A stretch of DNA of 64,000 bases. It comes from Nitrososphaerota archaeon (GTDB lineage: Archaea; Thermoproteota; Nitrososphaeria_A; Caldarchaeales; Calditenuaceae). This document shows positions 7,507-44,084 of this stretch, one piece after another. A program made the translations under genes and the position numbers. Numbering within the stretch: position 1 is the stretch's first letter; every line of letters begins with the position of its first letter. Under the pieces are notes generated by a model, which saw only the letters and a list, made by a program, of their open reading frames with translations, made no database searches and was not told the DNA's origin. Location: assembly GCA_038845265.1 (NCBI GenBank), contig JAWBQR010000003.1:72667-136666 (forward strand), written 5' to 3'.

Positions 7507-9216
7507 TTGGTGGACGAGGTTATAAGAATTCAGGACCTATGGTGGAGGTACGAACTCGGAAAAGACTGGGCACTCAGAGGGATAAACCTCACAGTAAGAA
7601 GGGGAGAATTCCTCGTAATAGTTGGCCCAAGCGGAGCCGGAAAATCAACACTATGTCTCACGCTCTGCGGCATGATTCCACACTTCTCGCGGGGATACTA
7701 TAAGGGAGAAGTTCTGATAAATGGCCAGGAGACGAGAAAGATGAGGCTGAGCGAGATAACAAAGAAGGTCGGGATAGTCTTCCAAGACCCCGACACACAG
7801 TTCGTCACGATGTCTGTAGAGGATGAGATAGCCTTCCCACTCGAGAATCATGGAGTCCCTAGAGAAGAGATGATTAAGAGGGTTAGAAGGACGATGGAGA
7901 TGACGAGGATACTTGAGTTAAAGGATAAGTATCCACATGAGCTCTCCGGAGGCCAGAAGCAGAGAGTCGCGATAGCCTCAATACTCGCCCTGGAGCCTGA
8001 GATACTCGTCCTAGATGAGCCGACCTCTGACCTCGATCCAGTTGGAAAGACAGAAGTATTCTCAATGCTGGCAGACCTAAAGAAAGCGGGGAGAACAATT
8101 ATCCTAGTCGAGCATAATACTGAGGAAGCCGCGAAGTATGCGGATAGAATTGTCCTCCTTAAGGATGGACAAATAATCAGCGAGGGCTCACCGAGAGAGG
8201 TATTCAGAGACGTAGAACACATAAAGTCTACAGGCGTATACCCGCCACAAGTGACTGAGCTAGCTTATCTCCTTTCGTTAAGACATGGCTTGAACGGCAA
8301 GTTACCAATAACCCTAGAAGAATGCATCGAGTGGCTCCGGGAGATGAACGCGAAGATCATCAAATCTCTCCAGTCCAAGCCATCACCACAGAAGACGGAG
8401 GGAGAACCAATTATATCGTTCAGGAGAGTCTCATACAGGTACCCAGACGGCACGCTTGCCTTGAGTAATGTAGAAATAGGCTTCTCTAGGGGCGAGTTCA
8501 TCGCTATAATCGGTCAGAATGGCTCAGGAAAGACTACGCTGGTAAAACACATAGTCGGATTGCTGAAACCAAGTACTGGAGAAGTGAGGATATTCGGTAA
8601 GAGGACCTCTGAGACAAGCATTAGGGAGCTTGCAACAAAGGTTGGATACGTCTATCAGAACCCTGATCATCAGCTCTTCTGTCAGACAGTATATGAAGAG
8701 TGCGCATATGGTCTCCGTAACCTCGGAGTCAGGGAGGATGAGATTAAGTCCCGTGTGAGGGAAATCCTCAGAATGGTCGGCCTCGAGGGAATGGAAGATG
8801 TCGATACATTTCTACTGGGAAAGGGACAGCGCCAGAGATTGGCGATTGCATCTACACTCGTAATGAATCCAGAGGTAATAATCGTTGATGAACCGACCAC
8901 AGGCCAGGATATGGCCCAGTCATCAAGCATAATGAAGCTCCTCCAAGCCCTGAACAGGGAGGGAAGAACAATAATAATCGTCACACATAATATGCGCCTC
9001 GTTGCTGAATATGCCGAGAGGGTTGTGGTGATGCATGCAGGTAGAATAATTCTTGACGAAGACGTCAGGACAGTCTTCTCGCAGCCCGAGAAGCTGAAGG
9101 AAGCATTGATCACTCCTCCCCAGATAACGCAGCTTGGACACATCCTGGCAGGAGAGCAGTTCAGCCCACTCACAGTCGAGGAGGCAGCAGAATCGATTAG
9201 GATCGGTGATGCGTAG
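7507..9216 (+). CDS. ecfA: ECF transporter ATPase, fused tandem ABC domains (EcfA-EcfA')
   Basis: Two Walker A sites (GPSGAGKST, GQNGSGKTT), two LSGGQ-type signatures (LSGGQKQR, LGKGQRQR) and two Walker B sites (ILVLDEP, IIVDEP). Confidence 0.85.
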   Translation: MVDEVIRIQDLWWRYELGKDWALRGINLTVRRGEFLVIVGPSGAGKSTLCLTLCGMIPHFSRGYYKGEVLINGQETRKMRLSEITKKVGIVFQDPDTQFVTMSVEDEIAFPLENHGVPREEMIKRVRRTMEMTRILELKDKYPHELSGGQKQRVAIASILALEPEILVLDEPTSDLDPVGKTEVFSMLADLKKAGRTIILVEHNTEEAAKYADRIVLLKDGQIISEGSPREVFRDVEHIKSTGVYPPQVTELAYLLSLRHGLNGKLPITLEECIEWLREMNAKIIKSLQSKPSPQKTEGEPIISFRRVSYRYPDGTLALSNVEIGFSRGEFIAIIGQNGSGKTTLVKHIVGLLKPSTGEVRIFGKRTSETSIRELATKVGYVYQNPDHQLFCQTVYEECAYGLRNLGVREDEIKSRVREILRMVGLEGMEDVDTFLLGKGQRQRLAIASTLVMNPEVIIVDEPTTGQDMAQSSSIMKLLQALNREGRTIIIVTHNMRLVAEYAERVVVMHAGRIILDEDVRTVFSQPEKLKEALITPPQITQLGHILAGEQFSPLTVEEAAESIRIGDA

Positions 9217-9986
9217 TGTCGAGAGAGGAGAAGGCTGGCTACAGGCTGAATGTCTGGGAGACACTCAGAAAGTACGCACGACCAGACTCGAGGTTCCACT
9301 GGGACTTCTCCAAATTCATCCCAGACTTCAGGGGAAGCACGAGGTGCGCTGAGAGGATCAGACGCCTACCAGCATATAGGAGGGCAAAACTACTGTTCAT
9401 AACTCCTGACAACTGTCTCGAGTACTTCAGGGAGCTCTGCATAAGGGATGGGAAGCGATTCCTCATGACGCCCTACGCTATTCGGAGAGACTTCTTCTAC
9501 CTCGACCCGAGGAGGGTGCCGCGCGGAATGGAGGCCCTCGCATCGACGCTAGACGGAATCGAGCGATACGCTAGGCCAGTCAGTCTTAGAAAGATGATGA
9601 GGCTTGGACGCGTCGATATGTTGGTGACGGGCGTCTCGATCGTGAATACTAAGGGCGTAAGGTACGGCAAGGGTACTGGCTTCTTCGACATAGAGTGGGC
9701 AATCTTCAGAGAGCTCGGAATGGTTGATGACGAGACTCCGATAGTTGCGGTTGCCCACGATTGTCAGGTCGTCGAAGTGGATTTTCCCTATGCCTCGCAC
9801 GACACTATTGTTGACTACATTGTGACGCCGAGGAGGACAATCAGGGTCGAGAGGACTGAGAAGAAGCCACTGGGCATCGACTGGAGAATACTTCCACGAG
9901 AGCTGTTTGAGACTATTCCTCCACTCCAAGAGCTGGCGGAGCTCAAGGGTGTCAGGTACCCAGCCTCCAGTCCTGGAGATACTTGA
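9216..9986 (+). CDS. 5-formyltetrahydrofolate cyclo-ligase-family protein (MTHFS-like)
   Basis: …VNTKGVRYGKGTGFFDIEW… resembles the G-x-G-x-G-YYD motif of 5-FTHF cyclo-ligases. Confidence 0.45.
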   Translation: MSREEKAGYRLNVWETLRKYARPDSRFHWDFSKFIPDFRGSTRCAERIRRLPAYRRAKLLFITPDNCLEYFRELCIRDGKRFLMTPYAIRRDFFYLDPRRVPRGMEALASTLDGIERYARPVSLRKMMRLGRVDMLVTGVSIVNTKGVRYGKGTGFFDIEWAIFRELGMVDDETPIVAVAHDCQVVEVDFPYASHDTIVDYIVTPRRTIRVERTEKKPLGIDWRILPRELFETIPPLQELAELKGVRYPASSPGDT

Positions 9987-11265
9987 CCTGTCTCTCTGTC
10001 AGCTCCTCGATCTCTATCCCCATGCTCCTGAGCTTCGCCTTTGCTACTGCCTTGTCTATCTCTTCTGGGACGTCGTAGACCTTCTTCTCCAGTCTATCGG
10101 CGTTTCTTGAGATGTATTCGATTGAGAGCGCCTGGAGTGAGAAGCTTAGGTCCATTACTTCTGACGGATGTCCCTCGGCCGCTACGAGGTTCACCAGTCG
10201 GCCCTGACCGATCAGCAAGAGCTCCTTTCCGTCCCTCAGTATGTATTTCGTGACCAGGGGGGTTAATTCCTCGACCCTGACCGCCATCGATGCGAGGTCC
10301 TTGACAGATATCTCGACGTCGTAGTGCCCCGCGTTTGCGAGTATTGCTCCGCTCTTCATCTCTTTGAAGTGCTCCGCCCTTATGACGTCTATGTCTCCTG
10401 TCGCCGTTATGAATATGTCTCCGATCCTCGCGGCCTCCGTCATTTTTGTTACTCTGTAGCCATTCATCACGGCCATCAGTGCCCTCACTGGGTCCGCCTC
10501 GACCACTATTACCTCTGCTCCCATTCCCCTGGCCCTCATGGCTATTCCCGAGCCGACCCGCCCATATCCGGCGACGACGACTCTCTTTCCGGCGAGGAGT
10601 ATTCCAGTGGCCCTGATTATTCCGTCGAGGGCTGACTGTCCCGTGCCTATTGGGTTGTCGAAGAGAGACTTTGTCGGCGATTCATTGACGGCGAAGACTG
10701 GGTAGAGCAGCAGTCCCTGCCTCATCAGTGACTTTATTCTTACGACGCCCGTGGTGGTCTCCTCTGTCCCGCCCTTTATCGATGAGTATATCTCGAGGTC
10801 TCCGCCGATGGCCGCGGAGGCGTTCTCGACGTCAGGCCCATCCATCTTCCTCGCAATCTTGTGGACGATGACTGTTAGGTCTGCCCCGTCGTCGACCGTG
10901 ATTGTCGGCTTAATCCTGAGGGCTCTCCCGATGCATTCGTAGTACTCTCTCTGGTTCATGCCCCTGGCCGCGTATACTTTTATTCCGCTCCTTGCGAGTG
11001 CCGCCGCTACGTCGTCCTGGGTGCTGAGCGGGTTGGATGCGCATAGGGCGACTTCTGCTCCTCCCGCCCTGAGGGTCTCGACGAGGACTGCGGTCTCCTT
11101 CGTGACGTGTAGGCACGCGGCTATCCGCTCATCTCTGAGCGGCTTCTCCTCCATGAATCTCTTCCTGACCATTAGGCAGACAGGCATGAATCTCTCGGCC
11201 CACTCAATTTTTCTTCTACCCTGTCCTGCCAGGCCGATGTCTCTTACCCAGTAATCCATGCTCAT
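9952..11265 (-). CDS. ahcY: S-adenosyl-L-homocysteine hydrolase
   Basis: 437 aa. NAD-binding …VVVAGYGRVGSGIA… and catalytic-domain conservation throughout. Confidence 0.9.
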   Translation of the reverse strand: MSMDYWVRDIGLAGQGRRKIEWAERFMPVCLMVRKRFMEEKPLRDERIAACLHVTKETAVLVETLRAGGAEVALCASNPLSTQDDVAAALARSGIKVYAARGMNQREYYECIGRALRIKPTITVDDGADLTVIVHKIARKMDGPDVENASAAIGGDLEIYSSIKGGTEETTTGVVRIKSLMRQGLLLYPVFAVNESPTKSLFDNPIGTGQSALDGIIRATGILLAGKRVVVAGYGRVGSGIAMRARGMGAEVIVVEADPVRALMAVMNGYRVTKMTEAARIGDIFITATGDIDVIRAEHFKEMKSGAILANAGHYDVEISVKDLASMAVRVEELTPLVTKYILRDGKELLLIGQGRLVNLVAAEGHPSEVMDLSFSLQALSIEYISRNADRLEKKVYDVPEEIDKAVAKAKLRSMGIEIEELTERQVKYLQDWRLGT

Positions 11266-12685: not shown

Positions 12686-12732
12686 ATAAACTATAAAAAT
12701 TTTATCTAAATCATCAATGAAATAAAGACAAT

Positions 12733-13959
12733 TTATTGACAGGCTGTTTCATAGAAGTATGGTATCGAAGATATTGTAGGCCTATCGATTAAATAATCAC
12801 ATGCATCAAACGAGTAACCAGACTGGAAAAGCCTAATAGTTCTCAACAGATAGAGAACAAATTGTATTAGGAATGAAAAGATAACAAAGTTACACAGATA
12901 CTTATTCTTTGATCTTAATTCTTTTAATCCCTGACCAACCATGTATGGCATTACTGGCAATAAATATGCTGTATGCCTAAAGAAGTCAATGTCACCTTTC
13001 AAAAATAAAAGTCCTACTGCAATAAATAATCCCAGAATAAACTGATACTTAACCGTGCTGTCCAGCGAATTAAAACGCTTAAGTACAAAAAATATCGGTA
13101 ACAATATTGCAAACGCAATTAGATTTATTGCCACTCTGAGAATAATCGTAATCTCGTTTGTAGCAATTACTGGTAATTTTACAAATGATAGATAAGAAGC
13201 GACATCATGAGCAGTAATCTCCCATGGGAGTATAGATGATAATACTGTCATGACTGCTCTATAACTTTCAATTGGCGTAGGAATGTGGGGCTGAAAATCA
13301 GAATAAGAATTACCTTCACTCATTGCAATATATGAATAATAAGTTAGTAATCCAATTATCCATCCACAAAACATTAACAATGTTGCCATTCTCAGCGACC
13401 TATCACCTTTGATATGATGTAAAACGATGAGGGTGGTAACGAGTAAGGGGAGGAAAACAAAAGCCGTCTCTCTGGTGAGGACCATTAAAAGAGGCAACAA
13501 AAGTAACAAGATATTCATAGATTTATTTCTATTCCTAAAAAGAATCAATAATAATGCCGTATTTAATAATGCAGTAAGAGCATCAACATAGGTACGTGAA
13601 AACAACAAATAAATCGGGGGCCATAATAAACCAACTAAACCAATCCGAGAAACAGTGTCTCGAATCATATGTACTTGAAGAAAAATGAAAATAATTAGTA
13701 AGCATGCAAGAATGACTTTATAGTAATTCCCTGTTATAGCTAACAAAAAATAATATAACGGAGCCCTTACGCATAAAGACATAGAATCTTTGGTACAGAC
13801 TGGGTCGTAAGCAAAGCCAGTCTTCCGCATAACCTTACTCGTCCAATAAACAACAGCTGGGTCACCATATAGAGGAGAAACAAAAATCAGAAATATAACA
13901 CTGATAATGTAAGTAAATAATGTGAATACTTGATAAATATTATCGTGGCTAAGCCGCAC
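12733..13959 (-). CDS. Polytopic (~11-12 TM) membrane protein, possibly a GT-C-type (PMT_2/ArnT-like) glycosyltransferase
   Basis: 408 aa, very hydrophobic, ~33% GC. No diagnostic motif is certain. Confidence 0.3.
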   Translation of the reverse strand: MRLSHDNIYQVFTLFTYIISVIFLIFVSPLYGDPAVVYWTSKVMRKTGFAYDPVCTKDSMSLCVRAPLYYFLLAITGNYYKVILACLLIIFIFLQVHMIRDTVSRIGLVGLLWPPIYLLFSRTYVDALTALLNTALLLILFRNRNKSMNILLLLLPLLMVLTRETAFVFLPLLVTTLIVLHHIKGDRSLRMATLLMFCGWIIGLLTYYSYIAMSEGNSYSDFQPHIPTPIESYRAVMTVLSSILPWEITAHDVASYLSFVKLPVIATNEITIILRVAINLIAFAILLPIFFVLKRFNSLDSTVKYQFILGLFIAVGLLFLKGDIDFFRHTAYLLPVMPYMVGQGLKELRSKNKYLCNFVIFSFLIQFVLYLLRTIRLFQSGYSFDACDYLIDRPTISSIPYFYETACQ

Positions 13960-14032
13960 GTAGTTTATCGTATCTATTCGATTTTTAAACTTTAATCATG
14001 CAGAAAGTGTTTGATTATCCAAAAAGTTAGAC

Positions 14033-14455
14033 TTACTTTATTTTTTCTAGTATTATGGCTGGGCAGACCCTTGTGACGCCGTCTAGTTTGTTTATTTTTT
14101 TTACAAATTCTGATAGTTCCTGCGAATCCTTAAACCAGCACTCAGCAAGCATCATGTGGTCGCCCGTTGAAGTATACAGGTTGATAACCTCCTCTATTTT
14201 CTTCAGTTCATCTACTATGTAGAGAAATTTCTCCGGAGACGCATCAATCCCTATGAGGACATGAACATTATATCCAAGCTTACGCAAATCAACCACCACT
14301 GTATACTTCTTTATCACGCCTTCCTCCTCGAGTTTTCTAATCCTCTTCCTGACAGCCGCCTCAGAAACTCCAAAAACTCCTGCTAACTCTGTGTATGACC
14401 TTCTGGCGTCCTCTCTCAGTAGCTTTATTAAGTCATGGTTCGTTATTCGAACCAT
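14033..14455 (-). CDS. lrp: Lrp/AsnC-family transcriptional regulator
   Basis: N-terminal HTH (…[41 protein letters not shown]…) plus C-terminal RAM domain, 140 aa. Confidence 0.85.
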
Positions 14456-14509
14456 AAAACATTAATAATCGTCTTATTTAATAAATATTACGAACAGGTG
14501 AAGAAAAAA

Positions 14510-15178
14510 ATGGGAACCAATGTTGAGGTTGGAAAGCTTCCACTAATCGGCGATAAGATGCCGAGCTTTAAGGCAAGAACAACCAAGGGAGTGATCAATT
14601 TCCCAGAAGACTTAAAGGGAAAATGGATAGTACTGTTCTCTCATCCAGGAGACTTTACGCCCGTATGCACGACGGAGTTCCATGCCTTCCAGAAGAGATA
14701 TAACGAGTTCAAACAGCTAAACTGCGAGCTCGTCGGCCTAAGCATCGACCAAGTATTCAGCCATATACAATGGGTCAGATGGATAAAGGAAAATCTGAAT
14801 ACCACTATTGAGTTCCCCATTATTGCTGATAGTGCTGGACAAATCGCATCCATGCTCGGAATGATACATCCAAAGAAGGGAACAAACACTGTGAGGGCAG
14901 TCTTCATAATAGACCCAGAAGGAGTAGTCAGAGCAATCTTCTACTACCCACAAGAACTCGGAAGAAACATCGACGAGATACTCAGAGCCGTCAGAGGCCT
15001 ACAAGTTGCTGACAAATCCAAGGCCGCCCTACCTGCAAACTGGCCCAATAATGAAATCATAGGAGATAAAGTAATCGTGCCACCCGCAACAGACGAAGCA
15101 ACCGCAGAAGAACGCCTAAAACAATACAAGGGATTCGACTGGTGGTTCGTCTACAAAGAACCAAGCCCAACCACCTAA
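14510..15178 (+). CDS. prx: Peroxiredoxin (Prx6/1-Cys-type thioredoxin peroxidase)
   Basis: …[15 protein letters not shown]… peroxidatic-Cys motif. I start at the ATG at 14510 (MGTNVEV…) rather than the track's upstream start. Confidence 0.85.
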
Positions 15179-15495
15179 AAATAAAACCTAATCAAAATTT
15201 TTTATGCTATCTAACCATCAAATAACATAATATACTAAACAACCCCTACCATAACCAAATACATCCCACAAATAATAAATAATTAATTATATCACAGATT
15301 TAATATCATTCCTCAACATATAATATCAATGGAGGAGCACAAATGAAGGACAAATCAAACAAAAAATAATAAGAAAACAACTACAACTCCACAGGTCAAA
15401 ATACTACACACACCACTACTAGCAAATACATAAACAAAACCAAGAACTGTTAAGCAATTTTTGACAAAAAACCCGCCGCTTAACAACCAAACAAT

Positions 15496-16215
15496 TCAGC
15501 GCTTCCTACGACCAGTCCGACGAGCAGCAATAAGCCCAACCTTCTGACCAGGCGGAGCCGTACGCTTCACCGGCTCAGGACGACCAATCCTCTTATGACT
15601 ACCCCCACCAAACGGATGCCTCGCAGGAACCATCGCAACACCCCTAACACGCGGATAAGGACGATGACGAGCCCTCATCAAATGATACCTCTTACCAGCC
15701 TTCAACATCGGCTTATCAGTACGACCACCACCAGCCACAATACCCACGACAGCCAACGCCTTACTACTAACCTCGGCAAGCTTCTTCGACGGAAGCTCAA
15801 TAATCGTCCTATCACCAAGCTGAGAGACAACAGAGGCATAAGCACCCGAAGACCTCACAAGCTTACCACCATCACCAGGAGAATGCTCAATACAAGAGAC
15901 AAGACCACCCTCAGGAACCTTACCAATCGGCACAATGTTCCCAGTAGCAACGCTAGCATCAGCACCAGCCTCAATCACCTGACCAACATACAGCCCCTGA
16001 ACAGCCGGAAGATAAAACACATGACCATCCATCTCCACCTCAGCCACAGGAACACCACGACCAGCATCATGAACAATGTCCCTCACAACCCCCCTCAACA
16101 AACCAGCAGAACCAATAACACTCGAAGGATAACCAACCGCATACCTCCTCTGAATACTACCGACATAAGTCGGCGAACCCCTACCAATCCTCTGAGCCCT
16201 AATCCTACGCGGCAA
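15496..16215 (-). CDS. rpl2: 50S ribosomal protein L2 (uL2), TTG start
   Basis: …GRGSPTYVGS…, …HPFGGGSHK… L2 signatures. Third codon positions are almost exclusively G/T. Confidence 0.9.
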   Translation of the reverse strand: MPRRIRAQRIGRGSPTYVGSIQRRYAVGYPSSVIGSAGLLRGVVRDIVHDAGRGVPVAEVEMDGHVFYLPAVQGLYVGQVIEAGADASVATGNIVPIGKVPEGGLVSCIEHSPGDGGKLVRSSGAYASVVSQLGDRTIIELPSKKLAEVSSKALAVVGIVAGGGRTDKPMLKAGKRYHLMRARHRPYPRVRGVAMVPARHPFGGGSHKRIGRPEPVKRTAPPGQKVGLIAARRTGRRKR

Positions 16216-16227
16216 ACACCACCACCC

Positions 16228-16500
16228 CTAAAACACACCAAGCCTCACAGCAAGATCCGAAGCCCTATACTCAGGCCTAAGCTTCACATACGCCTTCTTC
16301 ACACCCCTCGGCGTAATCAACGTATTAACCTTCTCAACCCTAACACCATAAAGACTCTCAACCGCACGCTTCACATCACTCTTCGAAGCCCCCAAAGAAA
16401 CAATAAAAGTCAACTTATTCTCCCGCTCAATCAACGAAACCGCATCCTGCGTAATCACAACACCCAAAATAACCTCCTCAGGCCTCAACGCCAAAGACAC
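16228..16500 (-). CDS. rpl23: 50S ribosomal protein L23 (uL23). Start re-assigned to GTG/TTG overlapping the L4 stop
   Basis: …[46 protein letters not shown]…. The track's 116-aa version extends into the L4 gene in another frame. Confidence 0.8.
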
Positions 16501-17299
16501 CCCCAAGAACACCAAGAGCAGAAGAAGAAAAAACCACAAGCCTACCAGGATGACCTCCAGGCGCCAAATGAAGAACACTCAAATCCCTCACATCAACAAC
16601 CTCAACGCCGGGAACACTCCCAGCAGCCCTAGATATGCCCTCATCACGAGAAACAACAATTAGAGGACCAACACGACGCTTATACCTCCTTCCCCTCCGC
16701 TTGCCCTTACCAGACCTCACCTTCCTCTCCCTGCACCTCTCCAACTCTTCTCCAAGCCCAAGACGCACCAAGAAGTCGACCAAGTCCTTCGCCCTCGAGA
16801 CACGCTCAATCTCATCCACAACAACGATCGGAACATCCAGGCCATCCGGGACTCGATGCCCCCTCTTCCTAACCCATTCAAGATTAGCAGTAAATGCAAG
16901 CGCAGAAAAAAGCGCCGACCTCCTCTCCTTATCATTCACATCCTTATGAATCCGCTTCTCAGGAACAGGAGGATGCGTCGGCCTCCCACCGACCGCAGTA
17001 GGGACAAACCCACCCGCATTACTCTTACCCGTACCAGTCACCCTCAGCCTAGAAATCCTCGCCAAGCCATAACCAGCACCAAGAGACTCAACAGAATACT
17101 TATGCCCAGAACCCCTCCACGCACCTTTAGGCTGAACCCGATGAGAAAAGAGAGCATTAAAGACCCTCTGCACAAGCAATGGCCTAAGAGGAGCATTAAA
17201 GACCCGGGGAAGAATCGTCCTGCCCTTCTCCACCCCATCTAAGCCGTAGACCCTGACCTCTCTCGGCTCAGAGACGCTGATACGCGTTAAGATACTCAT
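16478..17299 (-). CDS. rpl4: 50S ribosomal protein L4 (uL4)
   Basis: 273 aa, L4 family (…[17 protein letters not shown]…). Lies between L3 and L23. Confidence 0.85.
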
Positions 17300-18294
17300 G
17301 ATGCAAGCACCTCTCCTCCATAAATGTACGAGACGATCTTTGGCGGACTCACCGAATGGCTGGGTGGCTTCGCAGGCATCCTGAGCACAACCGGTCTCTT
17401 AGGAGTGCCGAAAACTGATCCAAGTACCACGATGCATGGGGACTTCAGAACTGTGAAGTGCTTGAACCCGCCGCTCGGAGTCAGCTTGGCGCCGTCGTCA
17501 ATCACGGCCATCACTCTTTTGTTGAACTCTGTTCTCCTATGATAACCCATCTGCCCAGCACGGGGGACAAATCTGGTGACATAAGTAGGTTTCCGCCCAC
17601 CGATTGCGCCGACCGCTCTACGAGTCTTTCTCTGCTTTCTTGGGAGAATCTTAACGCCAAATCTCTTTACAACGCCCTCGAATCCATGTCCCTTTGTGAC
17701 GCCTATGACGTCTACGTATAATCCAGGAGTAAACACTTCTGAGGCACTTATCTTACTCCCAAGCTTAGACATAACGTATTCAAGGGCTGAACGTACCTCT
17801 CCACCGACCTTGATTTCAAGGAGGAATGGGCGTTTCTGTGATAAGCCCGCCTCGCTTGGGAATGATGCGACAATTGCTCTTACCTCTACTGCCTTGTCAA
17901 GTAGGCTTTTAATCTCTTCTTTACCAGCGCCGGGAGATATGCCCCTGACTTTCTTGAGTAATGCTTCTGGCAGATTATCTGCATACATTCTTCCAAGCTC
18001 GATTAGATTGCCGTTTTCCTCGCCCATTAAGACCACGCCTATGATGTACATTGGTGGTGCAGCCAAGACAGTCGCAGCCGTCTGCACCTCAGTTCCGAAT
18101 GTAGGAGAGCCTGGCAGATCATCTACATAATGCAAAGTTAACGTACCTGCTTTATATGCAATGAATCCCATTAGCCCCTTTACACCATCTCTACTTGGCC
18201 AGTACCTTACGCTTGGAAGCAGTTCTTTAGCCCTCTTCCTCGGGCTATATGCTAATGACCCATGCCTCGGTGCCGAGTATTTCCTATGTCCCAT
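17296..18294 (-). CDS. rpl3: 50S ribosomal protein L3 (uL3)
   Basis: 332 aa, …GVTKGHGFEGVVKRFG… L3 signature. Codon usage is ordinary, unlike the three genes downstream. Confidence 0.9.
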   Translation of the reverse strand: MGHRKYSAPRHGSLAYSPRKRAKELLPSVRYWPSRDGVKGLMGFIAYKAGTLTLHYVDDLPGSPTFGTEVQTAATVLAAPPMYIIGVVLMGEENGNLIELGRMYADNLPEALLKKVRGISPGAGKEEIKSLLDKAVEVRAIVASFPSEAGLSQKRPFLLEIKVGGEVRSALEYVMSKLGSKISASEVFTPGLYVDVIGVTKGHGFEGVVKRFGVKILPRKQRKTRRAVGAIGGRKPTYVTRFVPRAGQMGYHRRTEFNKRVMAVIDDGAKLTPSGGFKHFTVLKSPCIVVLGSVFGTPKRPVVLRMPAKPPSHSVSPPKIVSYIYGGEVLAS

Positions 18295-18337
18295 CCAGCA
18301 TCACTATGATTAGCTGAGAGCAAAAGTTCTTTCAAAG

Positions 18338-18344
18338 TTATAAA
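18338..18344 (-). promoter_or_regulatory. TATA box (TTTATAA) of the rpl3 operon, flanked by an inverted repeat
   Basis: TTTATAA sits 44-50 nt upstream of the rpl3 ATG. Arms 18299-18313 and 18346-18361 match at 15 of 16 positions as an inverted repeat. Confidence 0.4.
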
Positions 18345-18503
18345 CCTAATCTATAGTGATGACTGGGACGAATAGTGAGGATTAGTGAGCTATGCCTGGT
18401 TTTTATTTGTGTAATTATTTAGTGTGAATAGTTTCTCTTTCTTATAAGTCTTTTTGTTGAGAAAACTAAATTAGCAGAGCAAGAGATGAATAATTTTGGT
18501 TAG

Positions 18504-18791
18504 ATGTCTGAGCAGACTCAAAGGACCACCATCGTCAGATTAGTATTAGATGTATTAAAGCCCCATAATCCAAACATTATTGATTTCAGTAGAAGTATTG
18601 CCCAAATCAGAGGAATAAGAAGAGTAGATGCATCGGTTATAGAGGTTGATGTGGAGACGGAGACAATTAAATTGATAATAGAAGGAAGTGAATTAGATGT
18701 CTCAAAAATCGAGGAGGTAATTAAAAAATTGGGAGCAGCAATTCATAGCATAGATGCTGTAGTAATAGAGAAATCTGATGTAAAGAAATGA
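18504..18791 (+). CDS. DUF211-family small protein
   Basis: 95 aa, …IVRLVLDVLKPHNPNIIDF…IEGSELDVSKIEEVIKKLGAAIHSIDAV…. Confidence 0.6.
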   Translation: MSEQTQRTTIVRLVLDVLKPHNPNIIDFSRSIAQIRGIRRVDASVIEVDVETETIKLIIEGSELDVSKIEEVIKKLGAAIHSIDAVVIEKSDVKK

Positions 18792-18805
18792 TGTGGATAC
18801 TTTAA

Positions 18806-19408
18806 ATGTTGTTAGAGAAACTTGTTCGTCGCATCAGGTTGATAATGAGTCTGACGGAAACAAGTGGAATAGCTAGACGTTACTTTGCACTTAATGCTTT
18901 CGATGGCGCGCTGATCGGACTGGGCGCAATCTTTGGTTTTTATATTTCGGGGATGTATGACTACAGAGTAGTCCTTTTGACAATAATGGCGATAGCTGTT
19001 GGGTCGGCAATCTCTGGTTTTTCCGGTGCCTTTATATCAGAAAAACTTGAGCAAGAGGCTAGGGTAAAGCGACTTGAGGAGGCCATTCTTACTAATCTTA
19101 AGGATAGCATTCATTACCAAGCAAGTTTAACAAGTTCTATTATAGTTTCCATAATTAATGGTGTTAGTTCATTGATTTCTATTTTTAGTGTCTCTGCTCC
19201 ATATGTTATTTGTATCTACTTATCACTAAGTGAGGTTGTTGGAATATTAAGCTCCATAACGGCATTTTTTGCCGTGCTAACCATATTGGGATATTTTTTC
19301 GGAAGAGAACTGAAGATAAGGACGATAAGTGTTGTTTCAAGAATTTTATTAGTTGGAATAGTAGCAATAGTTATTTACTTTTTAATTGAGTTAGTATTTC
19401 GGCTTTAG
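18806..19408 (+). CDS. VIT1/CCC1-like family membrane protein (putative metal transporter)
   Basis: …YFALNAFDGALIGLGAIFG… resembles the GANDGLVS block. About 4-5 TM, 200 aa. Confidence 0.45.
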   Translation: MLLEKLVRRIRLIMSLTETSGIARRYFALNAFDGALIGLGAIFGFYISGMYDYRVVLLTIMAIAVGSAISGFSGAFISEKLEQEARVKRLEEAILTNLKDSIHYQASLTSSIIVSIINGVSSLISIFSVSAPYVICIYLSLSEVVGILSSITAFFAVLTILGYFFGRELKIRTISVVSRILLVGIVAIVIYFLIELVFRL

Positions 19409-20422
19409 GCTCAATAATTCTTCTGGCCGATGTATTCCCACTTCCGTTATTATTCTTGTAATGAGTTCGGGTGGAGTTATGTCGAATGCATAATTTATAG
19501 CTCTTGCCTTTCGTGGTGTTATTCTTTTTCCAGCAAAATATAAAACTTCATTTGGATTACGTTCTTCTATGATGACCTCATCTATGGTTTTATCAAAATC
19601 TATTGTACTTGTTGGGGCTGCTACGTAGAGTGGGATTTTGTAGTAGTTAGCGGATATTGCTAATTCTAATGTACCTACCTTGTTTATAACGTGTCCTGTC
19701 TTAGCAATAATTCTGTCTGCTCCTACGACTATGCAGTTCACAAGGCCTCTACTCATAAGAAATGGCGCCATGTTATCTGTTATGACCCTATATTCTATTT
19801 TGGCGGTTTCTAGCTCATATGCAGTCAGACGCGCACCCTGCAGCTTAGGCCTAGTCTCCGGCACGATGACTGATATTTTCTTTCCCATCTCTACTGCTGC
19901 TTTTATCACGCCCAATGCTGTCCCGTACCCAGCAGTTGCTAGAGCACCTGCATTGCAGTAGGTCATGACCACCCCCCTATCAGGTAAAAGCCTAGCCCCG
20001 TTCTGACCAATTTTTCGATTCATCTCAACATCCTCCATAGATATTTTTTCCGCCTCCAACAATACTGTTTTAGCTACATCATCGTTCTTTATCCATGCTG
20101 ATTCCGCGGCTTTGAGCACTCTATCAATGGCCCAATATAGATTAACCGCTGTGGGTCTTGTCTTTCTTAAAATATTCGCTGCCTTTTGGAGTGATTTGAG
20201 TACGTCTTTCTTATTTTTTCTAGCATGGACTGCTGCAAGGGCTAATCCATATGCAGCGGCTACTCCAATCGCTGGAGCACCTCTCACCGTCATGTCTCTT
20301 ATGGCCTTTGCGACTTCAAGATAATTTTTACATCTCACATATCTCAGCTTATGCGGAAGTACCTTTTGATCTATTAGGTATAGTGAGTTATTCCGCCAGT
20401 ATAAGGTTCTTAGCTCTCTCAA
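19391..20422 (-). CDS. eIF-2B alpha/beta/delta-like isomerase (ribose-1,5-bisphosphate or methylthioribose-1-phosphate isomerase family)
   Basis: 343 aa, …MTVRGAPAIGVAAAYGLALAA…, …TYCNAGALATAGYGTALGVI…, …VGADRI…. Confidence 0.8.
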   Translation of the reverse strand: MRELRTLYWRNNSLYLIDQKVLPHKLRYVRCKNYLEVAKAIRDMTVRGAPAIGVAAAYGLALAAVHARKNKKDVLKSLQKAANILRKTRPTAVNLYWAIDRVLKAAESAWIKNDDVAKTVLLEAEKISMEDVEMNRKIGQNGARLLPDRGVVMTYCNAGALATAGYGTALGVIKAAVEMGKKISVIVPETRPKLQGARLTAYELETAKIEYRVITDNMAPFLMSRGLVNCIVVGADRIIAKTGHVINKVGTLELAISANYYKIPLYVAAPTSTIDFDKTIDEVIIEERNPNEVLYFAGKRITPRKARAINYAFDITPPELITRIITEVGIHRPEELLSLKPKY

Positions 20423-33885: not shown

Positions 33886-34332
33886 TTGGAAAGATTAGAT
33901 AAAATAGGAAACCTAACTCCTCACTCGAGGGGCATAAACCTAGTTGCAAAGGTTATATCCAAATCGGAGCCAAGATCTGTTGGAAGCCAATACGACCAAA
34001 CGCAGCATCAATTATCAGACCTACTGATAGCAGATGATACAGGAGCGATATCTTTAGTGTTATGGGACGAAAACATACCTAAGGTGAATGCCGGAGACAC
34101 CGTAAAGGTCTCAAATGCCTTTGTAAAGATATTCAGAGGAAAGATGCAGCTTAATCTGGGAAGGTATGGGAAGATAGAAATTTCAGATGAGCCTATAGGC
34201 GAAGTAAATACTGAGAACAACCTTTCTGAAAAAGAGAGCTTCCAGCAAGGCGGATTCAGAAGATTCAGTGGCCCAAGAAGAGGCGGAGAAAGAAGAGGCA
34301 GGCCTCAATTTAGATCAAGACAAGAAGAATAA
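33886..34332 (+). CDS. ssb: Single-stranded DNA-binding protein (canonical OB-fold SSB, Sulfolobus-like, 148 aa with RG-rich tail)
   Basis: OB-fold core …INLVAKVISKSE…GAISLVLWDEN…KVSNAFVKIFRGKMQLNLG…, acidic/RG C-terminus. Confidence 0.7.
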   Translation: MERLDKIGNLTPHSRGINLVAKVISKSEPRSVGSQYDQTQHQLSDLLIADDTGAISLVLWDENIPKVNAGDTVKVSNAFVKIFRGKMQLNLGRYGKIEISDEPIGEVNTENNLSEKESFQQGGFRRFSGPRRGGERRGRPQFRSRQEE

Positions 34333-42812: not shown

Positions 42813-44084
42813 CTATTTCTCATGATAAATCCAGCCTTCCATCTTTTCCCATTCCCAATGATAACTGGTCGGAACAGCATAGCCATAGACTATGCATCCC
42901 CGCCATACGGCATACTGTGGTTCTGCTGATAACTTTACGTTGACGTTCTCTAATCCTTTATTTCTCAACATGTATTGAAGTTTTGTTTGTGAATCTACTG
43001 TAATTCCTTTGAGTAAGGATAAAGGTTTCCACATAAAGTTACCGCCCGACAAAATTATATGTGCATATAAGTGGGGCTGTAACTCCACTGGGCACCTCTC
43101 TACAGCCCTTATTATTGTCTCAGCCATGTCTAAGGTTCCATAGAAAGTAATATCTCCTATCCTAGTGTCAGATGGTCTCGGCATGCCCCTCTTAAAGTAG
43201 CTCTGAAAGACCTCATGGTTGGGATTGAAAACATACTCTCCTATCAAGAAACGAGTCCATGAATACTCAGCCAAGTCAATCTTAATTCTCGTTCCCGGCA
43301 CTTGGTAGACCGCTCGGACCTGTTCAGGGTTACGCTTGGCGTAATTGATAGCCTCGTCAAGCTCGAGGGGGAGTAGCCCGATGTTTTCCTTAACTTTTCT
43401 GACTAGATTCTCTTCTCTTGCGAGGTCACCATACCCTGCATCTTTTAGTATCTCTGCAGTAATTGCATTTGCCTCACTTCCACCTCTATTCAAGGCAACT
43501 ATGGCGTCTCTAATAGGCGCCCTAGATATTGGTGCGACCTGCGTATTCCCATGGCCGCTTTCGACGACGACACAAGATAGCTCTTTATGAGCTATCGCAA
43601 CAGCTAATGGCTGAGGTATAATTGTTGATGCATAGACCAGTTTACTTTCCTTAGCTATGCTATCGTATATGTTTATTAAATTTTCATACATATATCGAGG
43701 AGCTACGGCAGATAATGATGCAACAAGATAAAATCCTTTAAAGCCAAAACCACTAGGTTTAAACTCCTCAAGTGCAAACATGGTTAATTCCTTAATAATT
43801 CTCCATGCGTTCTGATCGCCTTTTGGTATTACTCCATCCCTCATTGGATATATTAATCTCGATGAAAGATCAGCCCCACTTTCAAGAAAATACGATACTT
43901 CTTTTCCTACTACTATGTCTTTTTCGACACCCAAAATCTTAGATACCATTGACTTCTCTGGGAGATATCCACGATTCTCAATAATTGCGGGCCTCTCACC
44001 TAAAGTAATCGGTCCATATTTATAATCACTAGTTCCATAATCACTACCAAATACGAACCTGCGCTTGTAATCCTCCTCAAACAA
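42813..44084 (-). CDS. cren-1: Crenactin (archaeal actin homologue)
   Basis: Actin-fold motifs: phosphate-1 …FVFGSDYGTSDYKYG…, phosphate-2 …VVVESGHGNTQVAPI…, adenosine …ILSGGNFMWKPL…. 423 aa, as in Pyrobaculum/Thermofilum crenactins. Confidence 0.8.
   Translation of the reverse strand: MFEEDYKRRFVFGSDYGTSDYKYGPITLGERPAIIENRGYLPEKSMVSKILGVEKDIVVGKEVSYFLESGADLSSRLIYPMRDGVIPKGDQNAWRIIKELTMFALEEFKPSGFGFKGFYLVASLSAVAPRYMYENLINIYDSIAKESKLVYASTIIPQPLAVAIAHKELSCVVVESGHGNTQVAPISRAPIRDAIVALNRGGSEANAITAEILKDAGYGDLAREENLVRKVKENIGLLPLELDEAINYAKRNPEQVRAVYQVPGTRIKIDLAEYSWTRFLIGEYVFNPNHEVFQSYFKRGMPRPSDTRIGDITFYGTLDMAETIIRAVERCPVELQPHLYAHIILSGGNFMWKPLSLLKGITVDSQTKLQYMLRNKGLENVNVKLSAEPQYAVWRGCIVYGYAVPTSYHWEWEKMEGWIYHEK

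Follow-up and report, generated by a model that had tools for sequence, protein, structure and literature searches.

We found that the ribosomal-protein genes rpl4, rpl23 and rpl2 of an uncultured hot-spring archaeon lie in an island of strand asymmetry, which is practically complete yet restricted to 2.3 kb. The island (~2.34 kb) was delimited by change points and composition profiles within a stretch of 64,000 nucleotides, hereafter the window (table 1). Because the skew takes in the intergenic spacer downstream of rpl2 and also the last third of the peroxiredoxin gene, which converges on rpl2, it belongs to the DNA strand rather than to the codons. As its cause, we propose a local strand-asymmetric transition pressure, which would come from recurrent single-strandedness or unequal repair and would be filtered by selection at the protein level. 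We give this reading a probability of roughly 45%.

Table 1. Positions of the skew island and of the features in and beside it (numbering of the window)
Feature	Position	Strand	Description	Evidence
Strand-skew island	14899..17237	none	plus strand A+C-rich, minus strand G+T-rich	change points, composition profiles
prx, peroxiredoxin gene (1-Cys Prx type)	14510..15178	+	convergent with rpl2	PF00578, PF10417
Intergenic spacer in the island	15179..15495	none	plus strand A 50%, C 22%, T 22%, G 6%	
AT-rich promoter-like block	15270-15306	+	conserved	
SD-like TGGAGGAG	15330-15337	+	between the promoter-like block and the micro-ORF	
Micro-ORF MKDKSNKK*	15343-15369	+	after the SD-like TGGAGGAG	
Inverted repeat CTGTTAAGC-N22-GCTTAACA	15447..15485	none	T/A runs in the loop	motif search
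rpl2 (uL2)	15496..16215	-	239 aa	PF03947
Antisense ORF	15595..16632	+	345 aa, stop-free, opposite the rpl genes	
rpl23 (uL23)	16228..16488	-	86 aa; GT3 1.00	PF00276
rpl4 (uL4)	16478..17299	-	273 aa, intact	PF00573 on the identical gene in L001; homologues
rpl3 (uL3)	17296..18294	-	first gene of the rpl4-rpl2 operon; unskewed internal control; GT3 0.49	

The base fractions of the minus strand over the entire island are G 0.34, T 0.35, A 0.17 and C 0.15. On the rpl side, K3 goes from 0.49 to 0.86 at a change point (17237; LLR 46.8) that lies within rpl4, ~20 codons from its start. The earlier note on this DNA had described a gradual onset in the 5′ part of rpl4, which we also see, but its abrupt boundary at the rpl3 stop has to be moved into rpl4. 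Nor does the island end at 15179, as had been supposed. It reaches into prx, where the change point lies at 14899 (LLR 12.2) and A/C-ending codons go from 0.56 to 0.86; the island polarity is confined to the last ~93 codons of this gene (14899-15178), with A/C-ending fractions of 0.6-1.0. The island has ramps of 300-600 nt on either end and a peak at rpl23, and rpl23 is the maximum of the skew in every lineage that carries the island.

The fraction of third positions occupied by G or T (GT3) is 0.96 in rpl2, 1.00 in rpl23 and 0.83 in rpl4; in rpl4 the first ~20 codons are without bias, and the remainder reaches 0.75-0.97. For rpl2 and rpl23 together, G or T was found at 316 of 326 third positions (P = 2e-80 vs p = 0.5, and 6e-50 vs p = 0.63). 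A-ending codons are absent from rpl2 (A3 0.00; C3 0.04), and over the rpl genes the depletion of A exceeds that of C (A3 0.00-0.05 vs C3 0.00-0.12). The codon table showed the skew at each degenerate third position, whichever the amino acid, and T prevails over C in all two-fold pyrimidine boxes of the island genes. In contrast, rpl3 has a GT3 of 0.49, and all the remaining ~55 ORFs of the window lie at 0.33-0.63. Both the near-exclusive G/T third positions and the ordinary codons of rpl3 and the other genes, which the earlier note had read from the letters, are therefore confirmed by measurement. Furthermore, the longest codon-periodic A/C runs of the plus strand span 114 and 82 codons in the island and at most 23 codons elsewhere in the window. 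The GC skew of the non-template strand is ~+0.37 to +0.5 (the plus strand goes down to -0.5), and GGG runs on the minus strand number 22.7/kb in the island vs 7.75/kb for the window on average. Of the 70 two-tetrad G4 motifs on the minus strand of the window, 18 fall in the island.

As had been claimed, the 317-nt non-coding spacer shares the skew: its A+C content of 0.72 makes it a compositional outlier vs the 14 other intergenic regions of the window (0.43-0.58). It also contains several short elements. The inverted repeat lies 10 nt past the rpl2 stop, is kept in four lineages, and looks like a bidirectional terminator hairpin. The three elements at 15270..15369 together look like a small transcription unit convergent with rpl2; a paralogous copy is present in L085 (6540-6705), and an Rfam search gave no match. 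Scans of the island boundaries for Rfam families, tRNAs, repeats, and promoters or terminators gave nothing explanatory. In addition, the skew enters the 3′ end of the convergent downstream gene in several lineages, namely prx in the window and L015, g218/g176 in L011, and a 384-aa gene in L014. It fades away from rpl2 in prx and in the 384-aa gene, and stays raised over both g218 and g176. The pressure thus acts on DNA regardless of coding, and it is local.

The long antisense ORF is a by-product of the skew, and its frame is stop-free because T is nearly absent at its first codon position. We rejected it as a real gene: it has no Pfam match, and open antisense stretches differ in extent and in frame from one lineage to another. 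The earlier note had likewise taken it for a side effect.

Comparison of 67 Caldarchaeales loci showed that the skew and the synteny, with identical gene order, are common to five species-level lineages, in all of which GT3 is 0.74-1.00 in L4-L2. The third positions of L3 have diverged by 51-57% among these lineages, save for the pairs window/L012 (0.23) and L011/L014 (0.41). Because five lineages near synonymous saturation all retain the skew, it has been continuously maintained, and independently in each of them. Meanwhile, the skew is absent from the same operon in ~60 other Caldarchaeales, and in the sister group only rpl23 is raised (GT3 0.74-0.78).

A second island was found in the same MAG (L085, ~8580-10200), over a gene pair that encodes a ubiquitin-like protein (Ubl) and DUF7388. 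It was met by clustering S19 homologues, followed by one locus look-up. Its anatomy is like that of the first island (GT3 0.78 in Ubl and 0.81 in DUF7388), and the skew pressure is thus demonstrably present at a second locus of this genome. The second island keeps one DNA polarity across a divergent promoter and extends upstream of the operon start, and the bias of the S19 gene there is opposite relative to its own transcription. In L029, the polarity is likewise unchanged across a divergent gene pair. The DNA polarity is therefore constant through prx, AA-kinase, S19 and the L029 pair. Unskewed genes of the same MAG include S19 (GT3 0.38), aEF-2 (0.46) and DNA ligase (0.54).

The substitution pattern differs between the island and L3. 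G<->T transversions in the island proceed at a normal rate (0.153 vs 0.178), transitions are suppressed (0.096 vs 0.34), and the transversion divergence equals that of L3. Compared with L3, K->M nucleotide substitutions are 2.5-3 times less frequent per site. In addition, polymorphism is low: the core of the first island has 0 SNPs in 1.2 kb vs ~7/kb around it, and that of the second has 3 SNPs in 1.19 kb vs 7.8/kb. This reduced diversity argues against simple hypermutation. Together with the rarer K->M changes, it can only be reconciled with the skew if the partner strand is protected or if selection acts. Clade-specific replacements at outgroup-conserved columns of L4, L23 and L2 raised the G/T content in 25 cases (including K->R eight times and I->V three times) and lowered it in 7, whereas the control counts for L3 are 8 and 6. 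The pressure is strong enough to alter conserved amino acids. Two context or repair effects were also considered. A CpG- or methylation-type effect was rejected, given a C fraction of 0.15 before G vs 0.08-0.36 before other bases, and GC-biased gene conversion through G/T mismatch repair was rejected on logic, since it would favour C over T and the opposite is seen.

Under the reading that we prefer, a long-standing nucleotide pressure would have driven A->G and C->T changes on the strand coding for rpl4, rpl23 and rpl2, or would have blocked the reverse changes, while purifying selection would have preserved the three ribosomal proteins. The G+T-rich strand would recurrently become single-stranded, either where the G-rich sense transcript forms R-loops or where replication forks linger, and the partner strand would be protected or better repaired. 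In a thermophile, C and A may then be deaminated more often on the exposed strand than on its partner. A G-rich, C-poor non-template strand would favour R-loops and could make the state self-reinforcing; this would explain how a weak nucleus such as the rpl23 of the sister group expanded in the skewed clade. The joint loss of A and C, the spacer, the convergent 3′ ends, the directional replacements and the second island speak for such a pressure. A single-transcript R-loop is insufficient, because the polarity crosses the divergent promoter in the second island and in L029. C deaminates spontaneously much faster than A, and the stronger depletion of A in the island counts against deamination as the cause.

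Selection on nucleotide composition is a possible but less probable cause than this pressure. Here, a long RNA or the DNA as such would need one strand nearly free of A/C or the other nearly free of G/T, and weak selection would hold each free site at G or T. In one version, antisense transcripts would be kept unstructured, C-rich and G-poor for efficient termination or pairing; in another, the sense mRNA would be held G-rich and C-poor. The SNP deserts in the cores of both islands agree with such selection, and the rarity of K->M changes beside normal G<->T exchange fits a selection coefficient of roughly 4Nes = 2-3. The plus strand is also predicted to be nearly structure-free at 75 C, with folding energies per 150 nt of 0 to -3.5 kcal/mol in the rpl2-rpl23 core and at most -4.7 in the island, vs -5 to -8 kcal/mol in rpl3; moreover, the conserved promoter-like block of the spacer points antisense into rpl2. 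However, mutational asymmetry fits the substitution rates equally well, conserved amino acids have changed too, and the pressure covers poorly conserved spacer sequence and unrelated genes (ribosomal proteins and the Ubl-DUF7388 pair). The antisense ORFs are unconserved and without a family match, and we know of no archaeal factor that requires such a composition. Selection for an unstructured sense mRNA was rejected, because the predicted structure of that mRNA is not below that of the rpl3 mRNA.

Plain transcription-associated asymmetry, in which the transcription bubbles of a very strongly transcribed operon would leave the non-template strand open and heat would deaminate its C and A, is quite improbable as the whole explanation. 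Such asymmetry is known in bacteria and mammals, according to the account in PMC12999951 (citing Beletskii & Bhagwat 1996). Like C>T on the non-transcribed strand of E. coli and the coding-strand G+T excess of mammals, the island skew acts at the nucleotide level and enriches G/T on the coding strand of the affected operons; its sign is right for both rpl4-rpl2 and Ubl-DUF7388, and it passes the rpl2 stop as read-through would. Nevertheless, the first gene of the operon is spared. Since its stop overlaps the rpl4 start, rpl3 is by all appearances co-transcribed with rpl4-rpl2; no conserved promoter is seen in the alignment of the junction, whose only features are the stop/start overlap and an SD-like GGTG. 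Because rpl3 is apparently co-transcribed yet unskewed, ordinary exposure during transcription is not the whole cause. The coding strands of S19, aEF-2 and prx are also without G/T bias, the polarity runs through convergent and divergent neighbours with no flip at divergent promoters, and ~60 other thermophilic Caldarchaeales have the same operon without the skew. The amplitude exceeds any reported transcriptional case by one to two orders of magnitude, and local diversity is down, not up. Thus the proposal of the earlier note, strand-specific deamination in a transcribed unit, stands in part. Its sign and its nucleotide level hold, in that the non-template strand has been depleted of C and A, and both non-coding DNA and replacements follow; its simple form fails on the unaffected rpl3, the fixed polarity and the lower polymorphism.

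RNA-mediated conversion, by which a deaminated sense mRNA would be copied back into the chromosome from its 3′ end, is very improbable. It predicts that the 3′ 2.3 kb of the transcription unit gains coding-strand C>T and A>G, and the island is indeed anchored at the 3′ end of the operon, takes in the 3′ flank and fades toward the 5′ side; in L011 it extends further into rpl3 (GT3 0.67). However, no reverse transcriptase gene is present in the window or its flanks, the second island reaches upstream of its operon's start, and the reduced diversity does not fit. To our knowledge, no such process is known in archaea.

That a donor with another mutational bias supplied the tract, by horizontal transfer or gene conversion, is hardly credible, although the compositional change within the operon is abrupt. 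The nearest relatives of L3, L4, L23 and L2 are the same Calditenuaceae-like Caldarchaeales (identities of 65, 65, 74 and 75%), with the same nearest outgroups (L013, L017, L019, L038 and L041) for L3 as for the other three, and all L4 homologues are from Caldarchaeales; the differing protein neighbours envisaged earlier were not seen when compared. Five lineages share the skew and synteny despite near-saturation of synonymous sites, and the transversion divergence of the island is that of L3. Scans at the island found no flanking repeats, tRNA genes or mobile-element signatures, and among the 67 Caldarchaeales loci no lineage has a genome-wide bias of this type that would suit a donor.

Translational selection for G/T-ending codons has practically no chance: ribosomal-protein genes, the ones affected, are usually highly expressed, but the idea is excluded because this genome has no such bias in rpl3, S19 and aEF-2. 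The earlier note had named a bias common to all highly expressed genes as a refutation of its claim, and this outcome was not seen; non-coding DNA and oppositely oriented genes share the DNA-strand skew, and T beats C in two-fold pyrimidine boxes, where one tRNA reads both codons. An assembly or sequencing artefact is just as implausible, because several projects have yielded nearly the same sequence in at least 10 independent assemblies. Ten loci match window positions 14401-18400 at 99.45-99.95% identity, over both boundaries and with the same gene order, and at least 23 contigs (from NCBI MAGs, Logan SRA assemblies and JGI metagenomes) encode the exact L2 protein. The proteins, moreover, are intact and conserved; the chimera once suggested is thereby excluded.

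Three known systems resemble the island in part. The heavy strand of vertebrate mtDNA loses A and C when it is single-stranded (see PMC9561281, PMC3269012). As there, one strand of the island has lost A and C jointly at neutral sites and become G+T-rich, with an A+C-rich partner; the change affects mainly synonymous sites of intact genes with conserved proteins, is independent of orientation, and has A>G as its strongest component. However, the mitochondrial asymmetry covers a whole replicon, which replicates via a single-stranded intermediate, whereas the island is a 2.3-kb patch in an otherwise unskewed chromosome, has no known intermediate of this kind, and is of higher amplitude (A/C at 0-4% of third positions). 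R-loop regions, such as immunoglobulin class-switch regions and CpG-island promoters, share with the island a kilobase tract whose non-template strand is G-rich, C-poor and has G clusters (GC skew ~+0.4 to +0.5, GGG runs at 3x background), and in class-switch regions the displaced strand is a deamination target. They differ in that the island is protein-coding, its T/A skew is as strong as its G/C skew, and it is known from sequence alone. In bacterial replichore skew, the leading strand is G+T-rich, with G>C and T>A on one strand and a polarity unrelated to gene orientation, as in the island, but it extends over megabases and switches at the origin and terminus, while the island is a 2-kb bump with no switch in 60 kb of unskewed surroundings. 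Background replichore skew was rejected as a source, since the background is about zero everywhere (K 0.49-0.52 outside the islands at every locus examined) and without a sign switch. No Orc1/Cdc6 gene lies within the 64-kb window.

Strand compositional asymmetry is normally weak and genome-scale, and it serves to locate origins and to infer mutational processes. In archaea it is described as especially weak in PMC12999951. In our literature searches, no report of a local skew like this one in archaea came up. Whichever its cause, the island means that archaeal chromosomes undergo a so far undescribed process, strong, local and specific to one strand; one strand could be chronically single-stranded, repair could prefer one strand, or nucleic-acid composition could be under selection. 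The skew has outlived speciation, bends universally conserved ribosomal proteins and ignores gene orientation. Such islands can mislead HGT detection based on codon usage, and their long spurious antisense ORFs can mislead gene callers. Phylogenies from ribosomal-protein DNA can be misled as well; since the K->R and I->V replacements are directional, protein markers may also be affected.

A wider generalization is more doubtful than the local pressure itself. Caldarchaeales chromosomes may carry discrete heritable "keto-skew islands" of 0.6-2.4 kb, which would mark chronic single-strandedness of one strand as footprints of stable R-loops or of fixed fork-pausing or initiation zones. Each might start from a nucleus (rpl23, or the S19/Ubl promoter region in sister lineages), whose G-rich displaced strand would stabilize the structure, so that the island would grow and intensify. 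If this footprint reading is true, the island in the window would be the most extreme natural strand asymmetry that we know of, and composition alone could map R-loop or single-stranded DNA hot spots in uncultured thermophilic archaea.

The earlier note had described a G/T-ending skew in rpl4, rpl23 and rpl2 beside an unskewed rpl3, and this was confirmed. The fraction of G/T-ending codons on the coding strand (GT3) was 83%, 100% and 96% in the three genes versus 49% in rpl3, and 0.33-0.63 in the remaining ~55 ORFs of the 64-kb window. In rpl2, no codon ended in A and 4% ended in C, and 316 of the 326 third positions of rpl2 and rpl23 together were G or T (P = 2e-80). On the plus strand, codon-periodic A/C runs reached 114 and 82 codons, against at most 23 elsewhere in the window. 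Codon positions 1 and 2 of the skewed genes were shifted only slightly (0.53-0.59), and the proteins aligned normally with their orthologs. The antisense ORFs were rejected as genes and judged to be by-products of the skew, as had been proposed for the stop-free one.

The spacer after rpl2 was also skewed (A+C = 0.72, G only 6%; A+C 0.43-0.58 in 14 other intergenic regions), and A/C-ending codons made up 0.6-1.0 of the last third of the convergent prx gene versus ~0.5 of its first part. Likelihood change points fell at 17237, ~20 codons inside rpl4, and at 14899, within prx. Thus, of the limits first drawn (15179-17299), the gradual onset in rpl4 and the skew of the spacer held, while the start at the rpl3 stop and the end at 15179 had to be moved. 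Since a single polarity continues from one gene to the next, through a spacer and into a gene coded on the other strand, this island (island 1) is a 2.34-kb DNA-strand domain and not the codon usage of three genes.

Features of the window and of related loci (window coordinates unless a locus is named)
Feature	Coordinates	Strand	Remarks
rpl3	17296-18294	minus	
rpl4	16478-17299	minus	
rpl23	16228-16488	minus	
rpl2	15496-16215	minus	
Spacer after rpl2	15179-15495		317 nt
prx	14510-15178	plus	peroxiredoxin; convergent with rpl2
Small conserved unit	15270-15485		AT-rich promoter-like block, TGGAGGAG, ATG + 6-9-codon ORF, ~100 nt variable, hairpin CTGTTAAGC-N22-GCTTAACA
Paralogous copy of unit	L085 6540-6705		middle part not A+C-rich
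Island 2	L085 ~8580-10200		~1.6 kb
Smaller skew islands	L029 12400-13850; L073 12351-13150; L075 12251-13150; L017/L019 ~12700-13400; L026 10651-11300; L051 17701-18450		
Low-GC segment	12700-13960		GC 0.32-0.36 (surroundings 0.45-0.57)
Multi-pass membrane ORF	12733-13959		408 aa; in low-GC segment
SSB-like OB-fold protein	33886-34332		GT3 0.38
Crenactin-type actin homolog (PF00022)	42813-44084		GT3 0.52

Outside island 1 the window is ordinary chromosome. The actin homolog and the SSB-like protein have ordinary codon composition. Gene calls in the low-GC segment differ between strains (L001/L004 versus L002/L003/L007), which suggests a strain-variable insertion.

The skew was common to five species-level lineages with conserved synteny. 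Besides the window species, GT3 of L3/L4/L23/L2 was 0.67/0.91/0.93/0.88 in L011, 0.55/0.74/0.84/0.78 in L014 and 0.54/0.85/0.92/0.93 in L015, and that of L3/L4/L23 was 0.53/0.81/0.95 in L012, whose contig does not include L2. GT3 was 0.30-0.78 in ~60 other Caldarchaeales, and in a sister group (L017, L019, L026, L043 and L072) rpl23 alone was raised (0.74-0.78). In 600-nt windows over 1.16 Mb of Caldarchaeales DNA, the G+T fraction was 0.499 ± 0.037, and it exceeded 0.65 across more than 1 kb only in the L4-L2 domain of the skewed clade. Third positions of rpl3 differed between lineages by 51-57%, near saturation, apart from two closer pairs (window/L012, 0.23; L011/L014, 0.41). A relic of a single event is therefore impossible, and by this sequence comparison the skew must be kept up separately in each lineage. 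In addition, smaller islands of 0.5-1.4 kb and both polarities were seen in other Caldarchaeales, often at or adjoining S19, whose GT3 was 0.15 in L029 (Ca. Pelearchaeum) and 0.24-0.31 in Caldarchaeum MAGs.

An assembly chimera is ruled out, since the locus recurs with the same gene order in 10 fetched loci (99.45-99.95% identity to window 14401-18400); at least 23 contigs, drawn from NCBI MAGs and from Logan assemblies of independent runs, encode the exact L2 protein, and JGI metagenome contig L091 has the second locus of the window species. Horizontal transfer from a differently biased lineage was rejected as well. Among 67 Caldarchaeales loci, L4, L23 and L2 had the same nearest outgroups as L3, namely Calditenuaceae-like genomes (65/65/74/75% identity for L3/L4/L23/L2), and synonymous-site transversion divergence of the island (0.153) was judged to match that of rpl3 (0.178), with no sign of foreign origin. 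The L4 homologs placed the host in Caldarchaeales/'Aigarchaeota'.

A GT3 bias of all highly expressed genes, which the earlier note had linked to translational selection, was not found. An S19 homolog (P0192) was located in the assemblies that contain L002, L008 and L010, and at this second locus (L085) GT3 was 0.38 for S19, 0.46 for aEF-2 and 0.54 for DNA ligase, so the bias is not common to highly expressed genes. Translational selection was rejected because these genes and rpl3 are unbiased while the spacer and convergent genes are skewed. In the window species, S19 stands alone between a ubiquitin-like gene and the DNA ligase.

This locus carries island 2, found in the same MAG as L002 (GCA_042137595.1) and in L081-L091. 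It includes DUF7388 (GT3 0.81) and the ubiquitin-like gene (0.78), spills into a convergent amino-acid kinase gene (0.32), and reaches past a divergent spacer to take in the 5'-most ~200 nt of S19. In the distant relative L092/L093, only a ~700-nt nucleus was present at this site. Similarly, one polarity in L029 spans a minus-strand gene (GT3 0.69), a spacer and S19. Background skew outside the islands was nil. Thus, the skew islands are DNA domains whose polarity is independent of gene orientation.

Within island 1, codon choice moved toward G/T endings for every amino acid (CTT/TTG for Leu, AGG/CGT for Arg and GGT for Gly, with T in each two-fold pyrimidine box), a pattern beyond any tRNA-based preference. 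Clade-specific replacements at outgroup-conserved columns of L4+L23+L2 raised G/T content 25 times and lowered it 7 times (8 and 6 in L3). They included K to R (eight), I to V (three), T to A, A to V and N to S; the commoner replacements were mostly coding-strand A>G or C>T transitions. Furthermore, the gene 3' of rpl2 varies by lineage (prx, g218/g176 or a 384-aa gene), and each is complementarily biased toward its rpl2-proximal end. Together, these results show a strand-specific pressure on nucleotides.

With SAHH in the sister group, the varying neighbour also marks this junction as a rearrangement hot spot. The archaeal S10-type r-protein operon is interrupted here after rpl2 (window 15179-15495; L011, L013, L014, L015, L017, L035). 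The conserved blocks of the spacer run antisense toward rpl2 and were kept in 4/4 clade lineages; besides the promoter-like block they comprise an SD-like motif, with its micro-ORF, and a hairpin formed by an inverted repeat. No Rfam, tRNA or repeat features were found in the island 1 region, and this unit matched no Rfam family. The unit may represent a family of sRNAs or micro-ORFs, its hairpin serving as a bidirectional terminator.

Among 11 strains, window 14000-20000 had 40 SNPs and 15496-16698 none (~8 expected from flanks); synonymous SNPs numbered 0 in rpl2+rpl23 versus ~4.3/kb in adjoining genes. The island 2 core (L085 8515-9840, 11 strains) had 3 SNPs in 1.19 kb, where ~9 were expected from flanks (locus 7.8/kb). 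Haplogroup structure persisted on either side of the island 1 core. By parsimony over four lineages, transitions from G/T to A/C per G/T site were 0.15-0.23 in the island versus 0.46-0.55 in L3, while G<->T transversions were normal or higher. The sites are thus pinned at G/T with continuing turnover, which argues against simple hypermutation. Two models fit these dynamics equally well: deamination of the exposed strand while its partner is asymmetrically protected or repaired, and a selection-like force of ~4Nes = 2-3.

Selection on nucleic-acid composition is the main rival; the prediction that the antisense strand has no structure at 75 C would favour it. We prefer, with moderate confidence, a self-reinforcing R-loop or ssDNA zone with deamination. 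A strand that loses A and C together bears the mark of single-strand deamination, an example being the mitochondrial heavy strand, and the depleted strand of island 1 shows the same loss. For the rpl genes this strand is non-template; it is G-rich and C-poor, with GGG runs at 3x background density; such a strand favours R-loops. Such a zone would account for a kilobase-sized domain with diffuse edges and a peak at rpl23, grown from a small nucleus. However, rpl3 escapes the skew, the same polarity crosses divergent promoters, A is depleted more than C and diversity is low, so confidence stays moderate. The strand-specific deamination first proposed is partly supported, and this in a modified, domain-level form alone; its simple form fails on the rpl3 escape, the orientation-independent polarity and the low diversity.

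A 2026 survey (PMC12999951) describes archaeal skews as weak in general. A comparable local skew was not found in our literature search, and island 1 is an extreme and, it appears, undescribed variant of strand compositional asymmetry.
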